Shown here piece by piece: positions 6,104 to 11,017 of a stretch of 64,000 nucleotides of DNA; position 1 is the first letter of the stretch; the number at the start of each line of letters is the position of its first letter. The position numbers and the translations under genes were made by a program. Source of the stretch: Solirubrobacteraceae bacterium (GTDB lineage Bacteria; Actinomycetota; Thermoleophilia; Solirubrobacterales; Solirubrobacteraceae). The stretch spans positions 80,890 through 144,889 of the forward strand of contig JBEKWH010000006.1 of the NCBI GenBank assembly GCA_049513255.1, read 5' to 3'. The notes under the pieces were generated by a model that worked only from the letters and a program-made list of their open reading frames with translations, did not search any database and was not told the DNA's origin.

Positions 6104-6618
6104 GCGCCCAGACGCTCCCTGACGACGGCCGGCTCGACGCCGAGCGTCGCGAGCAGGCCCGCCGCCGGGTCTGGACGTTGCAGCTCGAGGATCGCCGCAA
6201 GCACGTGCTGGGGGCCCGGGTGACGATGCCCGCGGCGCATGCCCTTGGAGGACTCGCGCAGCACGTTCGCCGCGGACGGCGTCAGGCGCAGGCGTTTATT
6301 GAGCACCGTCCTGATTGTCGGCCGCGCGGGCACGTCGCGGGGATCGCCGGCCGGCAGCGGCGGCACCTCAGGGGGTGCGGCCATGCCGATCGCGACCAGC
6401 GCCTCGCGATCCATCTCATCCAAGGCCGAGCGCGCGCGCTGGGCGTCCGAGCCGACGGCGCCGGCGAGCACGGGATCGTCCAGCAACGCCACGAGCAGAT
6501 GCTCGGTGCCGACCTTGCGGTCGCCGCGGCGCCGCGCTTCCTCGCGCGCCGCGATGTACGTCGACCACGGGTGATACTCCTCACCCGATCGCTGGCGCTT
6601 GGCGGGCTCGCCCATCAC
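6100..6618 (-). CDS. Clp protease N-terminal (ClpN repeat) domain protein
   Basis: AREEARRRGDRKVGTEHLLVALL and a second repeat HPGPQHVLAAIL; no AAA domain. Confidence 0.88.
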   Translation of the reverse strand: MMGEPAKRQRSGEEYHPWSTYIAAREEARRRGDRKVGTEHLLVALLDDPVLAGAVGSDAQRARSALDEMDREALVAIGMAAPPEVPPLPAGDPRDVPARPTIRTVLNKRLRLTPSAANVLRESSKGMRRGHRHPGPQHVLAAILELQRPDPAAGLLATLGVEPAVVRERLGA

Positions 6619-6824
6619 AGCTCCTTTCCGTGCTTGGCGTGCACAGACTGCCGTGTGACGCCGAGCGCGTCACCGATCTGCTGCCACGACCACCCCTGAC
6701 GTCGGGCAACCGCGACCTGGCTGGCCTCGACGCGCTCCGCCAGCCGCCGCAGCGCGAGCGCCGCGCGCAACCCCACCAACGGGTCCTCCGAGGTGACGGC
6801 CGCCGTTATCTCGTCAATGTCCAC
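6615..6824 (-). CDS. Small helix-turn-helix DNA-binding protein
   Basis: ARRQGWSWQQIGDALGVTRQSVHAKH is an HTH typical of actinobacterial HTH-ClpN operons. Confidence 0.88.
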   Translation of the reverse strand: MDIDEITAAVTSEDPLVGLRAALALRRLAERVEASQVAVARRQGWSWQQIGDALGVTRQSVHAKHGKEL

Positions 6825-6826
6825 GC

Positions 6827-6871
6827 TGTCAGCCTAGCCTGACAGTGGGCGGCTGTCAAGACAGACTGACA
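6827..6871 (-). promoter_or_regulatory. SigA-type promoter TTGACA-N17-TAGGCT (leaderless) overlapped by two TGTCA-N8-TGACA palindromic operators
   Basis: Minus strand: -35 TTGACA (6854-6859) and -10 TAGGCT (6831-6836), with the GTG start 6 nt later. Palindromes lie at 6827-6844 and 6854-6871. Confidence 0.75.
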
Positions 6872-6899
6872 CCATATACTTAACGCACCTAAATACAGC

Positions 6900-7144
6900 C
6901 ACGAGTTCAGCGACCGCGCCGAGGCATACATGAATGGCCGTGTGCACACGAACGGGATCCAGAACTTCTGGAGCCTGCTCAAGCGCGGCCCGCGTGGACG
7001 TACGTCAGCGTGGACCCCGAGCACCTGTTCCACTACATCGACAAGCGCTTGTTCACGTTCAACCTGCGCGACCTGACTAACTCCGAGCGCTTCTCGGCCG
7101 TTCTCGCTGCCGTGAGCGGCCAGCGCCTGACCTATGGCGCGGTC
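6900..7144 (+). pseudogene. IS1595-family (ISXO2-like DDE) transposase C-terminal remnant, frameshifted
   Basis: Frame from 6900 reads EAYMNGRVHTNGIQNFWSLLKRG. After a frameshift near 6990-6998 it continues TYVSVDPEHLFHYIDKRLFTFN...RF...L...GQRLTY. The catalytic Glu of N.IE.FW is Gln and the N-terminus is missing. Confidence 0.85.
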
Positions 7145-7221
7145 GCCGGGCAGGATCGGAGGGGACGGTCCGACTGGAGCGGCAGCCGGCGACCGCCACC
7201 GCGCGGCGCAGAAAGGCAGCC

Positions 7222-7428
7222 TCAGCGAGCCGAAGGCATCAGGGCTGGGTCCGCCACAGCTTCGCCGATGATCGGTCGCGTAGCCCAAAGCCCAAGCGTC
7301 TCGCCGGGCTCCCCCCAGGCTATCTGCGCAAGCTCCGCTCGCATCAGCGCGAGCGTAAGCTGCGCTTCCGGCCCGAAGGTGCGGTCGATGTCTATGTCGG
7401 TGCTACTCGGAGCTTCCGCTTGCGTCAT
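7222..7428 (-). CDS. Small hypothetical protein (68 aa) overlapping the proteasome-like gene
   Basis: A strong GGAGG RBS precedes the ATG (GGAGGCCCAAATG). No recognisable domain. Confidence 0.45.
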   Translation of the reverse strand: MTQAEAPSSTDIDIDRTFGPEAQLTLALMRAELAQIAWGEPGETLGLWATRPIIGEAVADPALMPSAR

Positions 7429-8224
7429 TTGGGCCTCCCTCCGGATGGAAAGCGTCGAGCTGCTTCTGAAGCTCTGCGCTGGTGATCGACCGGAACCCGT
7501 CGAACATTAGAGCAAGCCGGTCAAGATCGTCGTTGCTTAGTCGTTTGAGCCCATCTCGGCTAATCACGGCCATCTCCGTGTCACGGCCAACACCGGGGGC
7601 TACCTCTGCCCCGCGCTTGGCGGCGTAAACCCGGAAAAGCGTCTGCTTGTAGTCGGCGGTGGCGCTGTGGACGTAGCCGGCCATCGTCGAGAGCACATGC
7701 GGCGCTCCGATGCCGATCGCAGCCCAGCCGATGGGATCGTGGTTGGTGTTGCCGCCACCAGGATTGCCGTTGGTATGGATATGGGCGCCCGACTCATCGA
7801 CGCCAGCTAGGAGCAACTCCACGCCCAAGTTGAACTGCGAGAGCTGGTTCTCAAGCAGCATGACGACCTGTTCGTTGAGTGCACGGTGCATCCCATGGAA
7901 CGATTCGAGCGAGAGTCCATGCGGGTTTAGGACGGTCTGCGCGGCCCGCCAGGTTCTCGCGGCGGCGTAGCGTTCGCCTAGCGCAACAGCGATGGCGGCA
8001 ATGTGCTCGGGCAAATCATCGGCAGCCGCGTCATTGACGAGCCTCATGCCGTCGAGCGTGTTCCCAGCGACCATGACGGCGGCCTTCGGGGTGAGCTGCA
8101 CCATCTTTGAGCCCGAGTGCTCGAACTCTAGGAAGTCGCCCGCCGTGACCATACGATCGGTCGCAACCACGGCTCGTGGCTCTCCATCCTCCCCCTTGCA
8201 CAAGGCGGCAATACATACGGTCAC
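7403..8224 (-). CDS. Proteasome beta-subunit-like Ntn-hydrolase fold protein
   Basis: N-terminal M-T, ATDRMVT (Asp17-like), GSK (Lys33-like), VAGN, LLLAGVD, AAIGIG and late GVG motifs. An RBS (GGAGGG) lies upstream. Confidence 0.72.
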   Translation of the reverse strand: MTVCIAALCKGEDGEPRAVVATDRMVTAGDFLEFEHSGSKMVQLTPKAAVMVAGNTLDGMRLVNDAAADDLPEHIAAIAVALGERYAAARTWRAAQTVLNPHGLSLESFHGMHRALNEQVVMLLENQLSQFNLGVELLLAGVDESGAHIHTNGNPGGGNTNHDPIGWAAIGIGAPHVLSTMAGYVHSATADYKQTLFRVYAAKRGAEVAPGVGRDTEMAVISRDGLKRLSNDDLDRLALMFDGFRSITSAELQKQLDAFHPEGGPNDASGSSE

Positions 8225-8402
8225 GCAGTCCCTCCCCGATCGGTGTCATGCGCGCATTCTCCGCGCGCGGCGCTCAGATCATAATGGTTGGAACTTCGGC
8301 CGTGGTGTTCCCGACTAGCGGCCTTCCCCGCGTTCGATCTCTTCGGGAGCTGTTTGAGCGTCGCCCCGTAGACGCGCAGCATGGCCAGGACCTGGACACG
8401 GC

Positions 8403-9410
8403 CTATTTCGTGTTCGGAGGCCTCGGCGTCTGAACGAGCTGGCGCGTCAGCGCATCGAATCGAACGAACTCGTCGTTCTTCGCGGTAGTCCTTGCCGACG
8501 CGTTACGCAGCGGCGGCTGTGACGCTGCCTGTTCGGCGTGCCACTGCTCGTCCCATTCGCGACGCTCGTCCTGCGCCTCGTCCGTCATCAGGGCCTCCCA
8601 TACGTAATCGCTGCTGAGGATGACGCCGACCCCGTAGCGGCTGGGCAAACCCTCGGGATTGGCGTCCTCGTCGGTGTAGTGCGCCGTGAAAAGGCCTGCA
8701 AACGTCGCCGTCCATGCAAGCGCGCGCAAGGTCGGTGGCGTACCATTACGCGCCTGCAATGGCCGGTCGGAAGCAACGGCCGTATCCGTGGCATACAGGG
8801 TCTGGACGAAGCATGGCGAGCCGCTGAACCCGTCATATGAGCGACAGTCAAGAAGGTGCCCGGTATAGCGGTAGGTGTGGGTGTCGTATGTTTTCTCGAT
8901 CGGCACTTCAAGGTTCCCGATGTTCCCGGCTCGCGCCATAGGCACATCGTGGAGAGGCGCGAAGATTCCGATGTAGTAGACGATCGCGCCCAGCATTGGG
9001 ACCACGCCGTGGGGGAGGATTTCGTCGATACGCACGGCCTGGAAGCGCCTCGCCAGATCATTCGGGTAGGGCGCAACCGCAAGATCAACCTCGGGGAGAG
9101 GCTGACGCCAGCCCCGCACTGGCACCGGCTCCGAAAGCTCGTGCGGCGCAAGCGGGTCGGGCACTTCGACCGCCAGCTCCACCTGGTTGCGGACATTGTG
9201 ATCTGCCGTGAGCAAGTACGGCCACCATCTGCCCCGCCGCCCCGGGGTTGGCGGGCTGGGCGCGCTAATGATGAACGCCGTACCCCGCAGTTCGCCCGCG
9301 CTCGTGAGTCGCACGGCCGCGTTGAGTGCCTCGGCTTCTAGCGGCATCGCACCGGGCTGCTGAACACGCCATCGGGGGAGATCGCACAGGCTGCACCCAT
9401 TCGCGCGCAT
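8403..9410 (-). CDS. Trypsin-like serine protease (no signal peptide or PDZ domain); start may be 9347
   Basis: Catalytic triad motifs YLLTADH, VDLAV and GFSGSPCF. Confidence 0.8.
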   Translation of the reverse strand: MRANGCSLCDLPRWRVQQPGAMPLEAEALNAAVRLTSAGELRGTAFIISAPSPPTPGRRGRWWPYLLTADHNVRNQVELAVEVPDPLAPHELSEPVPVRGWRQPLPEVDLAVAPYPNDLARRFQAVRIDEILPHGVVPMLGAIVYYIGIFAPLHDVPMARAGNIGNLEVPIEKTYDTHTYRYTGHLLDCRSYDGFSGSPCFVQTLYATDTAVASDRPLQARNGTPPTLRALAWTATFAGLFTAHYTDEDANPEGLPSRYGVGVILSSDYVWEALMTDEAQDERREWDEQWHAEQAASQPPLRNASARTTAKNDEFVRFDALTRQLVQTPRPPNTK

Positions 9411-9436
9411 GCTACCGCCCTCCTTCCGACACGTCT

Positions 9437-9481
9437 GGGGCCGTCTCCGAAGACTTGGCCGGTCGGGAGACGGCCCCTTTT
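9437..9481 (+). terminator. GC-rich hairpin followed by TTTT (intrinsic terminator-like)
   Basis: GGGGCCGTCTCCGA (9437-9450) pairs with TCGGGAGACGGCCCC (9463-9477), followed by TTTT. Confidence 0.5.
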
Positions 9482-9629
9482 CCGATTCCAGGACGAAGCG
9501 TGATCCAACCTATCCGCTGGCCCCGACAGCTATTCCGACCGGCCCAAGGTCTAGCTTCATTCAGCACAAAGGCTCGCCAAACCGGCCGGTCGGGTGAGCG
9601 CCAATTCCAAGACGAATGGAGATCACCCA

Positions 9630-9926
9630 ATGGCTATCCAAATAGTTGCTGTGAACACGTCACACGAACTGACGACCAAGGGCGCCGGTGCGATGCACAA
9701 GCACATCACCGAAGTCAAGACTGCCGGAGGTCGCGTGCTCACTCGCGCAGAAGTCGTGAGCAAAATCAAAGGGGGGACCGAGAGCTTCTGCACCAAGGTC
9801 GACGGCAAAGAACCGCTCGTCGTCGTCGTGACGTGTCCGCACTGCGCCAATGGCAGCTACATCCGCACGACGGAGGACAGCACGACTGCCGACAACCTGC
9901 TGAGCCTGCCGTCCTTTACGTCGTAG
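9630..9926 (+). CDS. DUF3892 family protein
   Basis: HKHITEV..TRAEVVSKI.GG..F.T...YIRTTEDSTTADNLLSLP matches the family pattern. RBS GGAGA lies upstream. Confidence 0.8.
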   Translation: MAIQIVAVNTSHELTTKGAGAMHKHITEVKTAGGRVLTRAEVVSKIKGGTESFCTKVDGKEPLVVVVTCPHCANGSYIRTTEDSTTADNLLSLPSFTS

Positions 9927-10272
9927 AGTCCTCGCCGCCCGCGACCGAGGCGCCAACCAGGCTGGTGATGCGTCTCGGTCGTACCGGCGGAAACGGAGCC
10001 GGGAGAATCGCAGTGTCCGGTCCGGGATGGCACCCGTAGCCGAGCGACACGGCGATGGCGTCAGCGATAAAGGGAATCAGGCGCTCGGCCTCCAGCACGG
10101 AGAACTCCGCGCCTAGCCGTCGATCGAGCACCAAGAGCACGCGGTCTTCGCCTTGCGGATGAGCCTCCAGAAACGGCACTTGCCAGCCGTTGACGACCAC
10201 ATCATGGTGCTCGCGTGGGCCACTGTAGGCGACTGCCATGCTCGGCATATCTGAGCACTCATGCTCTTGCAT
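9916..10272 (-). CDS. Hypothetical protein
   Basis: Protein-like composition (VNGWQVPFLEA...EAERLIPFIADAIAVSLGY.CHP) with a GGAAAGGA RBS-like element upstream. Confidence 0.65.
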   Translation of the reverse strand: MQEHECSDMPSMAVAYSGPREHHDVVVNGWQVPFLEAHPQGEDRVLLVLDRRLGAEFSVLEAERLIPFIADAIAVSLGYGCHPGPDTAILPAPFPPVRPRRITSLVGASVAGGEDSTT

Positions 10273-10453
10273 GACCCGTCCTTTCCACGACGGGTCGCTG
10301 TGTGCCTGCGCGTGAAACCGGGCTTGCGCGCCCAGCCGCAGACAACTAGCGACAAATGTCGGTCAGACTGACAAACCACCAACCCCTCCGGTGGGCCGGC
10401 CGTGCCACCGGATGCTGCCCGGCGACACCGGTCGGCCCATGCGCTCAGACCGC

Positions 10454-10891
10454 TCAGGATGCGGTCGGTGTGATCGTGACCGCTTCCTTCTTGGCCTCCT
10501 TCGGCAGCGGGATCGTCACTTCGACCACGCCGTCGTGGGTCTTGGCCTTGATCTTCTTGGCGTCCACGCCGGATGGCAGCGCCATCGAGCGGGAGAACGA
10601 CCCGTAGCGACGCTCGCGGCGCAGGAAGTGCTTGTCCTTCTCCTCCTTGCGCTCCTCGTGCTGGCCAGAGACCGTGAGGATGTCGTCCTCGACCTCGATC
10701 TTGACCTCCTCGGGCTTGATCCCCGGCACGTCAGCGCGCACCACGAGATTGCCGTTGTCGCGCTCGACGTCCACAGCCGGCATCCAGGCGCGCTCGCGCC
10801 CCTCGGCCAGCTCCTCGAACATGCGGTCGAAGCGACTGCGCAGCTCGCCGAGCTCGGCGAAGGGTTCCCAACGGGTAAGTGCTCCAGGCAT
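10454..10891 (-). CDS. Hsp20/alpha-crystallin small heat shock protein
   Basis: PAVDV...ADVPG, RRERRYGSFSRS and DGVVEVTIP motifs. RBS AGGAGA. Confidence 0.96.
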   Translation of the reverse strand: MPGALTRWEPFAELGELRSRFDRMFEELAEGRERAWMPAVDVERDNGNLVVRADVPGIKPEEVKIEVEDDILTVSGQHEERKEEKDKHFLRRERRYGSFSRSMALPSGVDAKKIKAKTHDGVVEVTIPLPKEAKKEAVTITPTAS

Positions 10892-10955
10892 GATGTCTCC
10901 TCAGGTCGTGATGGAAGCTGTTGATTGACGCTAGCCCGCGCCGCATGCCGGCACA

Positions 10956-10994
10956 TCGGGGAGCAACCTCAAGGCGCATCAGTGGAACGCCGCA
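10956..10994. promoter_or_regulatory. Two putative 16-bp response-regulator sites upstream of hsp20
   Basis: TCGGGGAGCAACCTCA (10956) and TCAGTGGAACGCCGCA (10979) fit the shared consensus T(C/G)(C/G/A)G(G/T)G-N4-(C/A)CC(G/T)CA. Confidence 0.45.
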
Positions 10995-11017
10995 CGGCGC
11001 TCGGAGGCACACGGGCG

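Follow-up and report, generated by a model that had tools for sequence, protein, structure and literature searches.

Within a 64,000-nucleotide stretch of the genome of a Solirubrobacteraceae bacterium (GenBank assembly GCA_049513255.1, contig JBEKWH010000006.1, positions 80,890 to 144,889; the whole stretch is here called the window), we characterized the gene for a proteasome homolog (PH) and the small open reading frame (ORF) that overlaps its 3′ end. These two genes form a discrete module, which in relatives is housed by IS1595-family or IS1-like elements, by integrative elements, and by phages. Strong purifying selection still acts on the module, which is also represented in metatranscriptomes from peat. 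The best overall explanation, to which we give somewhat better than an even chance, is a transposon-borne protease/partner module with a proposed role in conflict.

PH is very probably an intact N-terminal-threonine hydrolase of the proteasome family

The PH gene (7403..8224, minus strand) encodes 273 amino acids (aa) from a GTG start and carries the active-site set T2/D23/K40/G54. The protein begins MTVCIAALC..., with the threonine directly after the GTG-encoded methionine (start of the reading frame, MTVCIAALCKGEDGEPRAVVATDRMV), and a strong Shine-Dalgarno (SD) site, GGGGAGGGA, lies ahead of the GTG. Because only about six codons are open upstream of this start (open frame, 280 aa), a propeptide is impossible, and Thr1 is predicted to be exposed simply by removal of the initiator methionine. 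Public gene calls of family members (P0010, P0013, P0188, P0147, P0243, and P0256) are often wrong at the 5′ end; miscalled copies lack about 25 aa or have 30 to 217 aa added across the GTG start, which masks the M-T N terminus. Apparent N-terminal fusions of 300 to 520 aa were likewise rejected as gene-caller over-extensions across the GTG start.

In Pfam, PH matched Proteasome (PF00227) alone, at 26.3 bits against a cut-off of 22.4, and a single-sequence search of the sequences in the PDB returned weak matches to 20S alpha and beta subunits. A profile of 85 family members reached archaeal beta subunits at an E value of 5e-10, and its alignment to these (3h4p/6he5) placed T2, D23, and K40 on Thr1, Asp/Glu17, and Lys33. 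The family carries equivalents of Thr1, Asp17, Lys33, and Gly47 throughout the underlying 85-sequence alignment, where T2 is conserved in 84 of 84 sequences, D23 in 84 of 85, K40 in 85 of 85, and G54 in 84 of 85. A family-specific block, K203-R-x-x-E207-V-A-P-G-V-G213, is essentially invariant in the same sequences, and C4, C9, H148, and H176 are also largely conserved. The invariant E207 falls near the position of Asp166, as placed by sequence alignment rather than by superposition of coordinates.

An AlphaFold2 (AF2) model of PH, built on the 85-sequence family alignment, had a predicted local distance difference test score (pLDDT) of 95.5 and a predicted template modeling score (pTM) of 0.90. 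The model has the four-layer alpha-beta-beta-alpha fold of N-terminal nucleophile (Ntn) hydrolases, and its best 50 Foldseek matches in the PDB were all 20S subunits, with a probability of 1.00. Comparison with the beta subunits of A. fulgidus, T. acidophilum, and M. jannaschii gave a template modeling (TM) score of 0.83 and a root mean square deviation of 2.6 to 3.9 Å. Helix H1 lies at residues 56 to 68 and H2 at 75 to 102, with no helix between strands S3 and S4; additional to the archaeal beta subunits are a helical hairpin after H2 (about residues 103 to 130) and a 28-residue C-terminal helix (231 to 258). Collectively, these data make it very likely that PH is an intact N-terminal-threonine hydrolase of the proteasome family, in its fold and in its predicted catalytic competence.

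PH is nevertheless distinct from the characterized members of this superfamily. It shares the Ntn fold and the active-site equivalents with 20S beta subunits (MEROPS T1A; PF00227; 1J2Q, 3H4P, and 1PMA), but it differs from them in having no propeptide, a 5- to 6-residue insertion in the first hairpin (so that the Asp is residue 23 and the Lys residue 40), the extra hairpin after H2, the long C-terminal helix, a variable Ser129 position, and its own KRxxEVAPGVG block. Against the model of canonical beta subunits, TIGR03634, PH scored 23.9 bits, where the cut-off is 224. PH is single-copy in the window genome, which is 94.5% complete and in which we detected neither an alpha subunit nor any other PF00227 gene. 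Neither HslU nor ARC was found near PH in the window or in homolog loci with listed gene calls, the search for these two being local rather than genome-wide, and no AAA+ gene adjoined PH in any locus whose called genes were listed. Matches to HslV were marginal (4hnz_A at an E value of 0.33 in the single-sequence PDB search; phrog_1040 at 0.28), and at E values of ≤1 NCBIfam yielded for PH only archaeal proteasome subunits plus one unrelated family (PdsA). Anbu, BPH, and connectase resemble PH in lacking a propeptide. Neither Anbu nor BPH appeared among the top 60 PDB sequence matches or the top 50 Foldseek matches of PH, and no direct comparison with them was made.

At the Ser129-equivalent (position 172), the family has Ser in 65 of 85 sequences and I, V, T, M, or N elsewhere; the clade of the window copy has Ile, giving IGIG. 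Because this position varies across the family, IGIG is a clade trait at a tolerant position and is weak evidence for altered chemistry. An earlier, sequence-only reading of the locus had proposed a proteasome-beta-like Ntn hydrolase with a threonine after the methionine, Asp17- and Lys33-like residues, and neither a propeptide nor proteasome partner genes, and all of this is borne out by the results above. Its report of IGIG in place of IGSG was also correct as to the sequence, but the altered chemistry that it suggested gains little from a position of this kind.

A small ORF overlaps the end of PH and recurs in position at most inspected loci

The partner ORF (7222..7428, minus strand) encodes 68 aa from an ATG start, overlaps the end of PH by 26 nt, and has an SD site, GGAGGGAGG, which precedes the ATG by 5 nt. 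The ORF is 65% identical (E value, 1e-32) to the equivalent ORF beside the PH gene of L077 (L numbers designate homolog loci), the closest relative with genomic context, whose PH is 88% identical to that of the window. In comparison with the L077 counterparts, the ratio of nonsynonymous to synonymous substitution rates (dN/dS; Nei-Gojobori) is 0.058 for PH and 0.14 for the partner, with dS at about 1.3 in each case. Thus, the 68-aa ORF, which the sequence-only reading had singled out for its overlap and strong ribosome-binding site, is a real, co-transcribed gene under purifying selection. Because of the 26-nt overlap and that ribosome-binding site, its translation is probably coupled to that of PH.

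The position of this gene is conserved far more widely than its sequence. At roughly three quarters of 51 homolog loci, a same-strand ORF starts near the PH stop, between about 120 nt ahead of it and 30 nt past it; the loci belong to Actinomycetota, Chloroflexota, Acidobacteriota, Planctomycetota, and others. The partner sequences diverge fast; their common features are an amphipathic helix and, after it, a short Pro-containing motif, which at the C terminus reads RDLSPxGR in many Actinomycetota and Chloroflexota copies and ...PSAR in the window. An iterated hidden Markov model (HMM) recovered the RDLSPxGR-ending subfamily at 10 loci, each match lying directly downstream of PH, and did not connect DLSPxGR-type partners with those of the window or Acidobacteriota types; likewise, there was no significant similarity between the partners of the window and L013. 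The homology of all partners therefore rests on position and not on sequence. No natural fusion of protease and partner was found.

A short conserved linear motif at the C terminus of the partners would also suit a connectase-like transpeptidase or peptide-processing enzyme, for which the partner would be the dedicated substrate, recognized via that motif. Connectase is itself a proteasome homolog that acts as a sequence-specific ligase on a short motif (PMC7980362, PMC8665760). It lacks H1/H2, however, and carries a lid of two helices inserted between S3 and S4 (PMC8665760), whereas the PH model retains H1/H2 and has no helix at the site of the lid. PH has no Pfam match to the connectase family at E values of ≤1, the motif is confined to one clade of partners, and some elements have no small ORF, all of which make this reading quite improbable.

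Relatives of the PH pair occur within small DDE transposons

The most compact relative, L064, is a 2.1-kb unit that consists of PH and a convergent IS1595-family transposase alone; its ends are CATGATTATT(C/T)ACTTGAC inverted repeats, flanked by an 8-bp direct repeat, TTAACTAT. L065 has the same layout plus one 127-aa ORF and an 8-bp duplication, TGGTTAAG. The elements of Actinomycetota (L006, L007, L009, and L076) measure 3.9 to 4.4 kb and are also bounded by inverted repeats, which are perfect over 27 nt in L007, where the 8-bp duplication is AAGTCGAT, and over 45 nt in L009. The terminal inverted repeats match at 82% over 56 nt in L006 and at 90% over 30 nt in L076, and L048, from Pirellulales, is a 3.1-kb version that also has terminal inverted repeats.

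The transposases of these elements belong to two related types. Pfam identified DDE_Tnp_IS1595 together with Zn_ribbon_IS1595 in five of them and an IS1-like DDE domain in three others; the transposase of L014 matches both IS1595 models. Searches of 61 loci with transposase HMMs found IS1595-type genes or remnants at 12 and IS1-like genes at 9, mostly directly downstream of the pair and convergent with it. It was in the IS1595 family that insertion sequences (ISs) with passenger genes, or transporter ISs (tISs), were first recognized (Siguier, Gagnevin and Chandler 2009, as cited in PMC3129680). The PH elements share with the tISs of this family their IS size, an IS1595 DDE transposase with its Zn ribbon (present as full genes in relatives), terminal inverted repeats, 8-bp duplications, and a passenger inside. 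They differ from known tISs in that the passenger is a proteasome-family protease and recurs across phyla and with IS1-like transposases as well. In the searchable literature, we found no mention of a proteasome-like passenger in IS elements.

L007, L009, and L076 have a common gene order, which consists of an 84- to 86-aa ORF, a gene for an XRE helix-turn-helix (HTH) protein, PH, the small partner, a 67- to 69-aa HTH ORF, and a transposase on the opposite strand. L007 and L009 have, in addition, a 224- to 277-aa ORF after the transposase, and L006 carries homologous genes in a rearranged order. The XRE gene overlaps the start of PH in L007 (7711-8004) and L076 (4696-5004) and lies immediately upstream of it in L009 (7625-7903). 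When the L007 copies of the first two genes were scanned, the XRE protein matched in PADLOC best the restriction-modification (R-M) model 'Control_protein' (E value, 2.9e-13) and then CapH (1.9e-8), and the 84- to 86-aa ORF had no Pfam match.

PH and transposase identities are at odds with each other. L009 and L077 have transposases that are 91% identical and PH proteins that are 50% identical, and the corresponding values for L007 and L076 are 88% and 50%. Such discordance indicates a swapping of modules, with the PH-partner block acting as a cassette that is passed among related transposon backbones.

Two further arrangements were seen at such loci. At 4307-6597 of L063, one inverted repeat (TGCTTGAC...CAAGCA) is present in three copies, which enclose an IS1-like transposase and PH separately, as if the PH cassette were mobilizable on its own ends. 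In two Solirubrobacterales genomes, the flanks of L009 (3177-13311) and L013 (186-9591) are syntenic and the slot between them holds different versions of PH, each 50 to 66% identical to the window PH, with a full transposon in L009 and none in L013. This slot may be a hotspot of recurrent insertion or exchange.

The window copy is most likely the cargo of a decayed transposon

In the window, the PH pair is followed by what is left of an IS1595-family DDE transposase (6891..7156, plus strand). This remnant of 89 codons is convergent with the pair, lies 66 nt beyond the small ORF, and corresponds to residues 226 to 314 of a 314-aa relative; the first 225 codons are gone, and the frame is shifted near position 6998. 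It is 61 to 74% identical to the transposase of L014 (tblastn E value, 2e-29). By type, the remnant belongs with L014 (69%) rather than with L077 (35%), although the L077 PH is 88% identical. In L077 itself the arrangement is complete, and the transposase, of 323 aa, is intact. Similarity between the L077 and window DNA is confined to 7222-8296, which comprises exactly the partner, PH, and 72 nt upstream.

The region upstream of PH (8225..8316, minus strand) contains the SD site, a block with the sequence AAGTTCCAACCATTATGATC, and a GGAAC-N12-GTTCC inverted repeat. Identity to L014 is 97.6% over positions 8275-8316 but only 70% in the coding DNA, and the AAGTTCCAACCATTATGATC block precedes PH in the window, L014, L077, and L009. 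This block is a candidate for a conserved promoter/operator. Directly before the transposase remnant lies an AT-rich stretch, CAGACTGACACCATATACTTAACGCACC (6862..6890, plus strand), which contains ATATACTTAAC. The latter bears a tentative resemblance to the (T)ACTTGAC motif found in the inverted repeats and transposase-promoter palindromes of related elements, and no inverted partner or second copy of it was found in the window.

Pair and remnant sit in a low-GC islet (6500..11000) with a GC content of 0.61 to 0.68, versus 0.69 to 0.74 in the flanks; the islet also holds a trypsin-like gene, a DUF3892 gene, and a 118-aa ORF. We searched genomes of the same genus for an empty site, which was not defined: the sole ortholog of the flanking Clp_N gene lies at a contig end. 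Taken together, these features make it highly probable, if not quite as secure as the fold of PH, that the window element is a decayed IS1595-type tIS that has lost most of its transposase and its ends, with the PH pair as surviving cargo. The pair had previously been assigned to a mobile cargo island. That assignment stands insofar as the islet is low in GC and horizontally acquired, and it can now be narrowed to a decayed IS1595-family transposon whose intact relatives carry the pair.

A 10-bp direct repeat, CAGACTGACA (6862/10364), was considered as a target duplication and rejected as being at chance level; a stretch of 3.8 kb contains seven exact repeats of 10 nt or longer, this one included, and IS1595 duplications are 8 bp. 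The only intact IS1595 transposase of the window genome, of 302 aa, is encoded elsewhere (G000:C20:17491-18399; L072 1444-2352, minus strand). It adjoins an unrelated 236-aa ORF and not PH, and no clear inverted repeats were found around it.

The pair is maintained by selection and represented in metatranscriptomes

One RNA contig from peat and wetland metatranscriptomes covers 7272-8256 with zero mismatches, which includes most of the small ORF, the whole of PH, and 32 nt upstream, and the pair was covered in four RNA runs. The RNA contigs of run X21 do not bridge 8310-8420, the gap between the pair and the trypsin-like gene. In the same run, the contig of an HSP20 gene (10454-10891, minus strand) had a word depth of 83, compared with about 6 for the PH contig, an approximately 14-fold difference that argues for RNA rather than carry-over of DNA.

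A frameshifted transposase and the absence of any inverted repeats left in the window are what one would expect if PH were a functionless relic, the decaying passenger of a dead transposon. The reading frame is intact, however, every catalytic residue is present, and both the dN/dS values and the coverage of both genes in four metatranscriptomes speak for maintenance. The selection and expression data have largely refuted the relic reading already, and we regard it as highly improbable.

The same data could instead reflect a benefit to the host. PH would then be a horizontally acquired, stand-alone threonine protease, either self-compartmentalizing or monomeric, for general or stress proteolysis in a genome devoid of 20S and HslV, with the partner as an Ump1-like assembly chaperone or gate. 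The lack of any other PF00227 gene detected in the genome, the presence of PH in metatranscriptomes in situ, and the HSP20 and Clp_N proteins among its window neighbors would fit such a role, as would the C-terminal helix at 231 to 258, which resembles the H5 helix described as stabilizing double rings by Fuchs et al. (PMC8665760). Those neighbors, however, are not conserved in other loci, PH recurs in transposons, phages, and integrative elements, and its distribution is extremely patchy: within the genus 2 of 37 genomes carry PH, and elsewhere in the order none of 24 does. We therefore consider a host-beneficial protease improbable.

PH is one member of a very large uncharacterized family

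A word-indexed search returned 207 relatives of PH, all of which came from metagenomes or metagenome-assembled genomes (MAGs) where the source was shown. Their only names were 'hypothetical protein' or the automatic JGI names '20S proteasome alpha/beta subunit' and 'HslVU peptidase subunit.' An HMM scan of 1.84 billion representatives gave 5,541, 4,071, and 1,728 clusters at E values of ≤1e-3, ≤1e-10, and ≤1e-30, respectively, and we quote the size of the family as at least 1,700 clusters at 50% identity. The 47 loci recovered from species-representative genomes are all from MAGs and include Solirubrobacterales, Gaiellales, Acidimicrobiia, Chloroflexota, Acidobacteriota, Planctomycetota, Bacteroidales, and Alphaproteobacteria, as well as Patescibacteria-type genomes and several archaeal lineages; 11 further loci are on IMG/VR contigs. 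Members of the NCBI cluster of PH are all 'hypothetical protein' from MAGs, and the source habitats of the family are almost only those of uncultured soil, peat, and sediment lineages. A tblastn search with three family members found nothing in the plasmids of PLSDB or the GenBank/cultured phages of INPHARED, and PADLOC, PHROGs, and NCBIfam hold no family-level name for PH. Thus, PH is one member of a very large uncharacterized family and not an isolated oddity. The earlier description of PH as a member of an uncharacterized family is supported, and PH does not nest within HslV, connectase, or canonical 20S subunits.

Fuchs, Alva and Lupas described in 2021 a set of 22 orphan proteasome-homolog families, with no genomic context hinting at function (PMC8665760). 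The uncharacterized clusters of that survey resemble PH in having no propeptide or AAA+ partner, in occurring in bacteria, archaea, and phages, and in lying near alpha and beta subunits. They include families with a helical insertion after H1/H2 (PHI and PMI-3/4) and families with a long C-terminal helix (WPH and some PHI) (PMC8665760), and PH shares both features, a likeness drawn from the published descriptions. PH probably corresponds to, or borders, one of these clusters, with WPH, PHI, or PMI-4 fitting by their described features. Two members of the PH family, HAC44472.1 and HAF19838.1, have low-numbered TPA-type accessions and were presumably public before the survey. What sets PH apart from the clusters as reported is its recurrent context, namely, an association with IS1595/IS1 elements, with a coupled small ORF, and with an XRE controller.

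The module may take part in conflict

Mobile elements are known to carry small regulated modules, among them ImmR/ImmA of ICEBs1, CapH/CapP of the cyclic-oligonucleotide-based antiphage signaling system (CBASS), and toxin-antitoxin pairs in Tn3-family transposons. By analogy with the ImmR/ImmA and CapH/CapP types, PH loci may be viewed as sets of two to three small genes with an XRE-type controller beside a protease or effector; unlike ImmA and CapP, PH is an Ntn threonine protease and not a Zn metallopeptidase. We propose that the mobile element could benefit from the PH pair as a regulated protease/partner module for conflict. The partner would bind PH through its amphipathic helix and C-terminal motif and might serve as a pseudo-substrate inhibitor, a gate, an assembly partner, or a first substrate. 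Loss of a labile partner, or a trigger derived from an invader, would then unleash proteolysis in an addiction or abortive-infection-like response, and in the Actinomycetota elements expression would be restrained by the controller-type XRE repressor encoded just upstream. We favor a conflict module because of the patchy distribution of PH, the swapping of cassettes, the fast-evolving partner, and the match of the XRE protein to R-M controllers and CapH. As a specific function, a toxin-antidote or abortive-infection-like role is put forward tentatively, as a possibility by analogy.

A protease that travels with a transposase might also act on transposition itself. PH could cut its own transposase, the small HTH protein, or the XRE repressor, in a manner like that of ImmA/ImmR or CapP/CapH, and so adjust transposition, or expression of the cargo, to the state of the host, with the small ORF as an adaptor or decoy. 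This would account for a minimal element of protease and transposase only and for an association that recurs with two related transposase families across phyla; the XRE gene that overlaps the protease start in L007 and L076, and the resemblance of its product to CapH, the natural partner of which is a protease, are also in keeping with it. Protease and transposase do not coevolve, however, either in L009 and L077 (50% versus 91%) or in the window and L077, where the protease is 88% identical and the remnant 35%. Moreover, the window protease is under strong selection and found in RNA runs despite a dead transposase, and other family members reside in phages and integrase elements that have no such transposases. 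Control of transposition thus seems unlikely to us. A statement that spans both functions, namely, that PH and its co-translated partner are a selected functional module of the IS1595/IS1-type transposon lineage, borrowed by phages and integrative elements, which would act as an addiction/abortive-infection effector or as a transposition controller, we consider plausible, at somewhat less than an even chance.

Several observations weigh against a transposon-borne conflict module. In the window, no terminal inverted repeats or target duplication were found. About two thirds of the 61 family loci have no transposase within 4 kb, and other contexts include an integrase-bearing element (L011/L012) and phage-like contigs (L061/L062) in which a terminase small subunit follows; because of these loci, the family cannot be regarded as exclusively IS borne. 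The minimal element L064 has no small ORF. The metatranscriptome contigs are unstranded and may contain DNA, and the direction of transcription is one that we infer. Finally, PADLOC gave no match for the window proteins or for three other PH family members, and thus no model matched any family member scanned; this outcome speaks neither for nor against the anti-phage role that had been suggested from the sequence.

The family now has a reproducible context: it is carried by small DDE transposons whose inverted repeats and target duplications are clean, it has a fast-evolving partner in most loci examined, it appears on different transposon backbones, and in some lineages a controller-type repressor precedes it. 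This context turns a function unknown into testable hypotheses of toxicity, retention, phage protection, and transposition control. If the conflict module is real, PH would be the first proteasome-family protease in mobile-element conflict, and it would extend proteasome-type chemistry to mobile-element biology as a new class of IS accessory gene.

Neighboring features of the window

The gene upstream of the pair (8403..9410, minus strand) encodes a cytoplasmic trypsin-like serine protease of 335 aa, with its His in LLTADHNV and its Ser in GFSGSP. It matches Pfam Trypsin_2 at an E value of 0.0037, which is below the cut-off, and has no PADLOC or NCBIfam name. Among the loci, only L014 has a homolog, as a fragment at a contig end, and the gene is absent from L077 and from the distant loci. 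We therefore rejected it as a component of the PH system.

Two other genes lie in the same islet, one for a DUF3892 protein (9594-9926, plus strand; phrog_8224, E value of 1.5e-15) and one for an unnamed ORF of 118 aa (9916-10272, minus strand). At 6452-6534, within the Clp_N gene, runs X22 and X24 show a variant joint in which 15 other letters (GCCAAGACGACCACC) replace the stretch, probably a strain variant of this Clp_N-domain gene.

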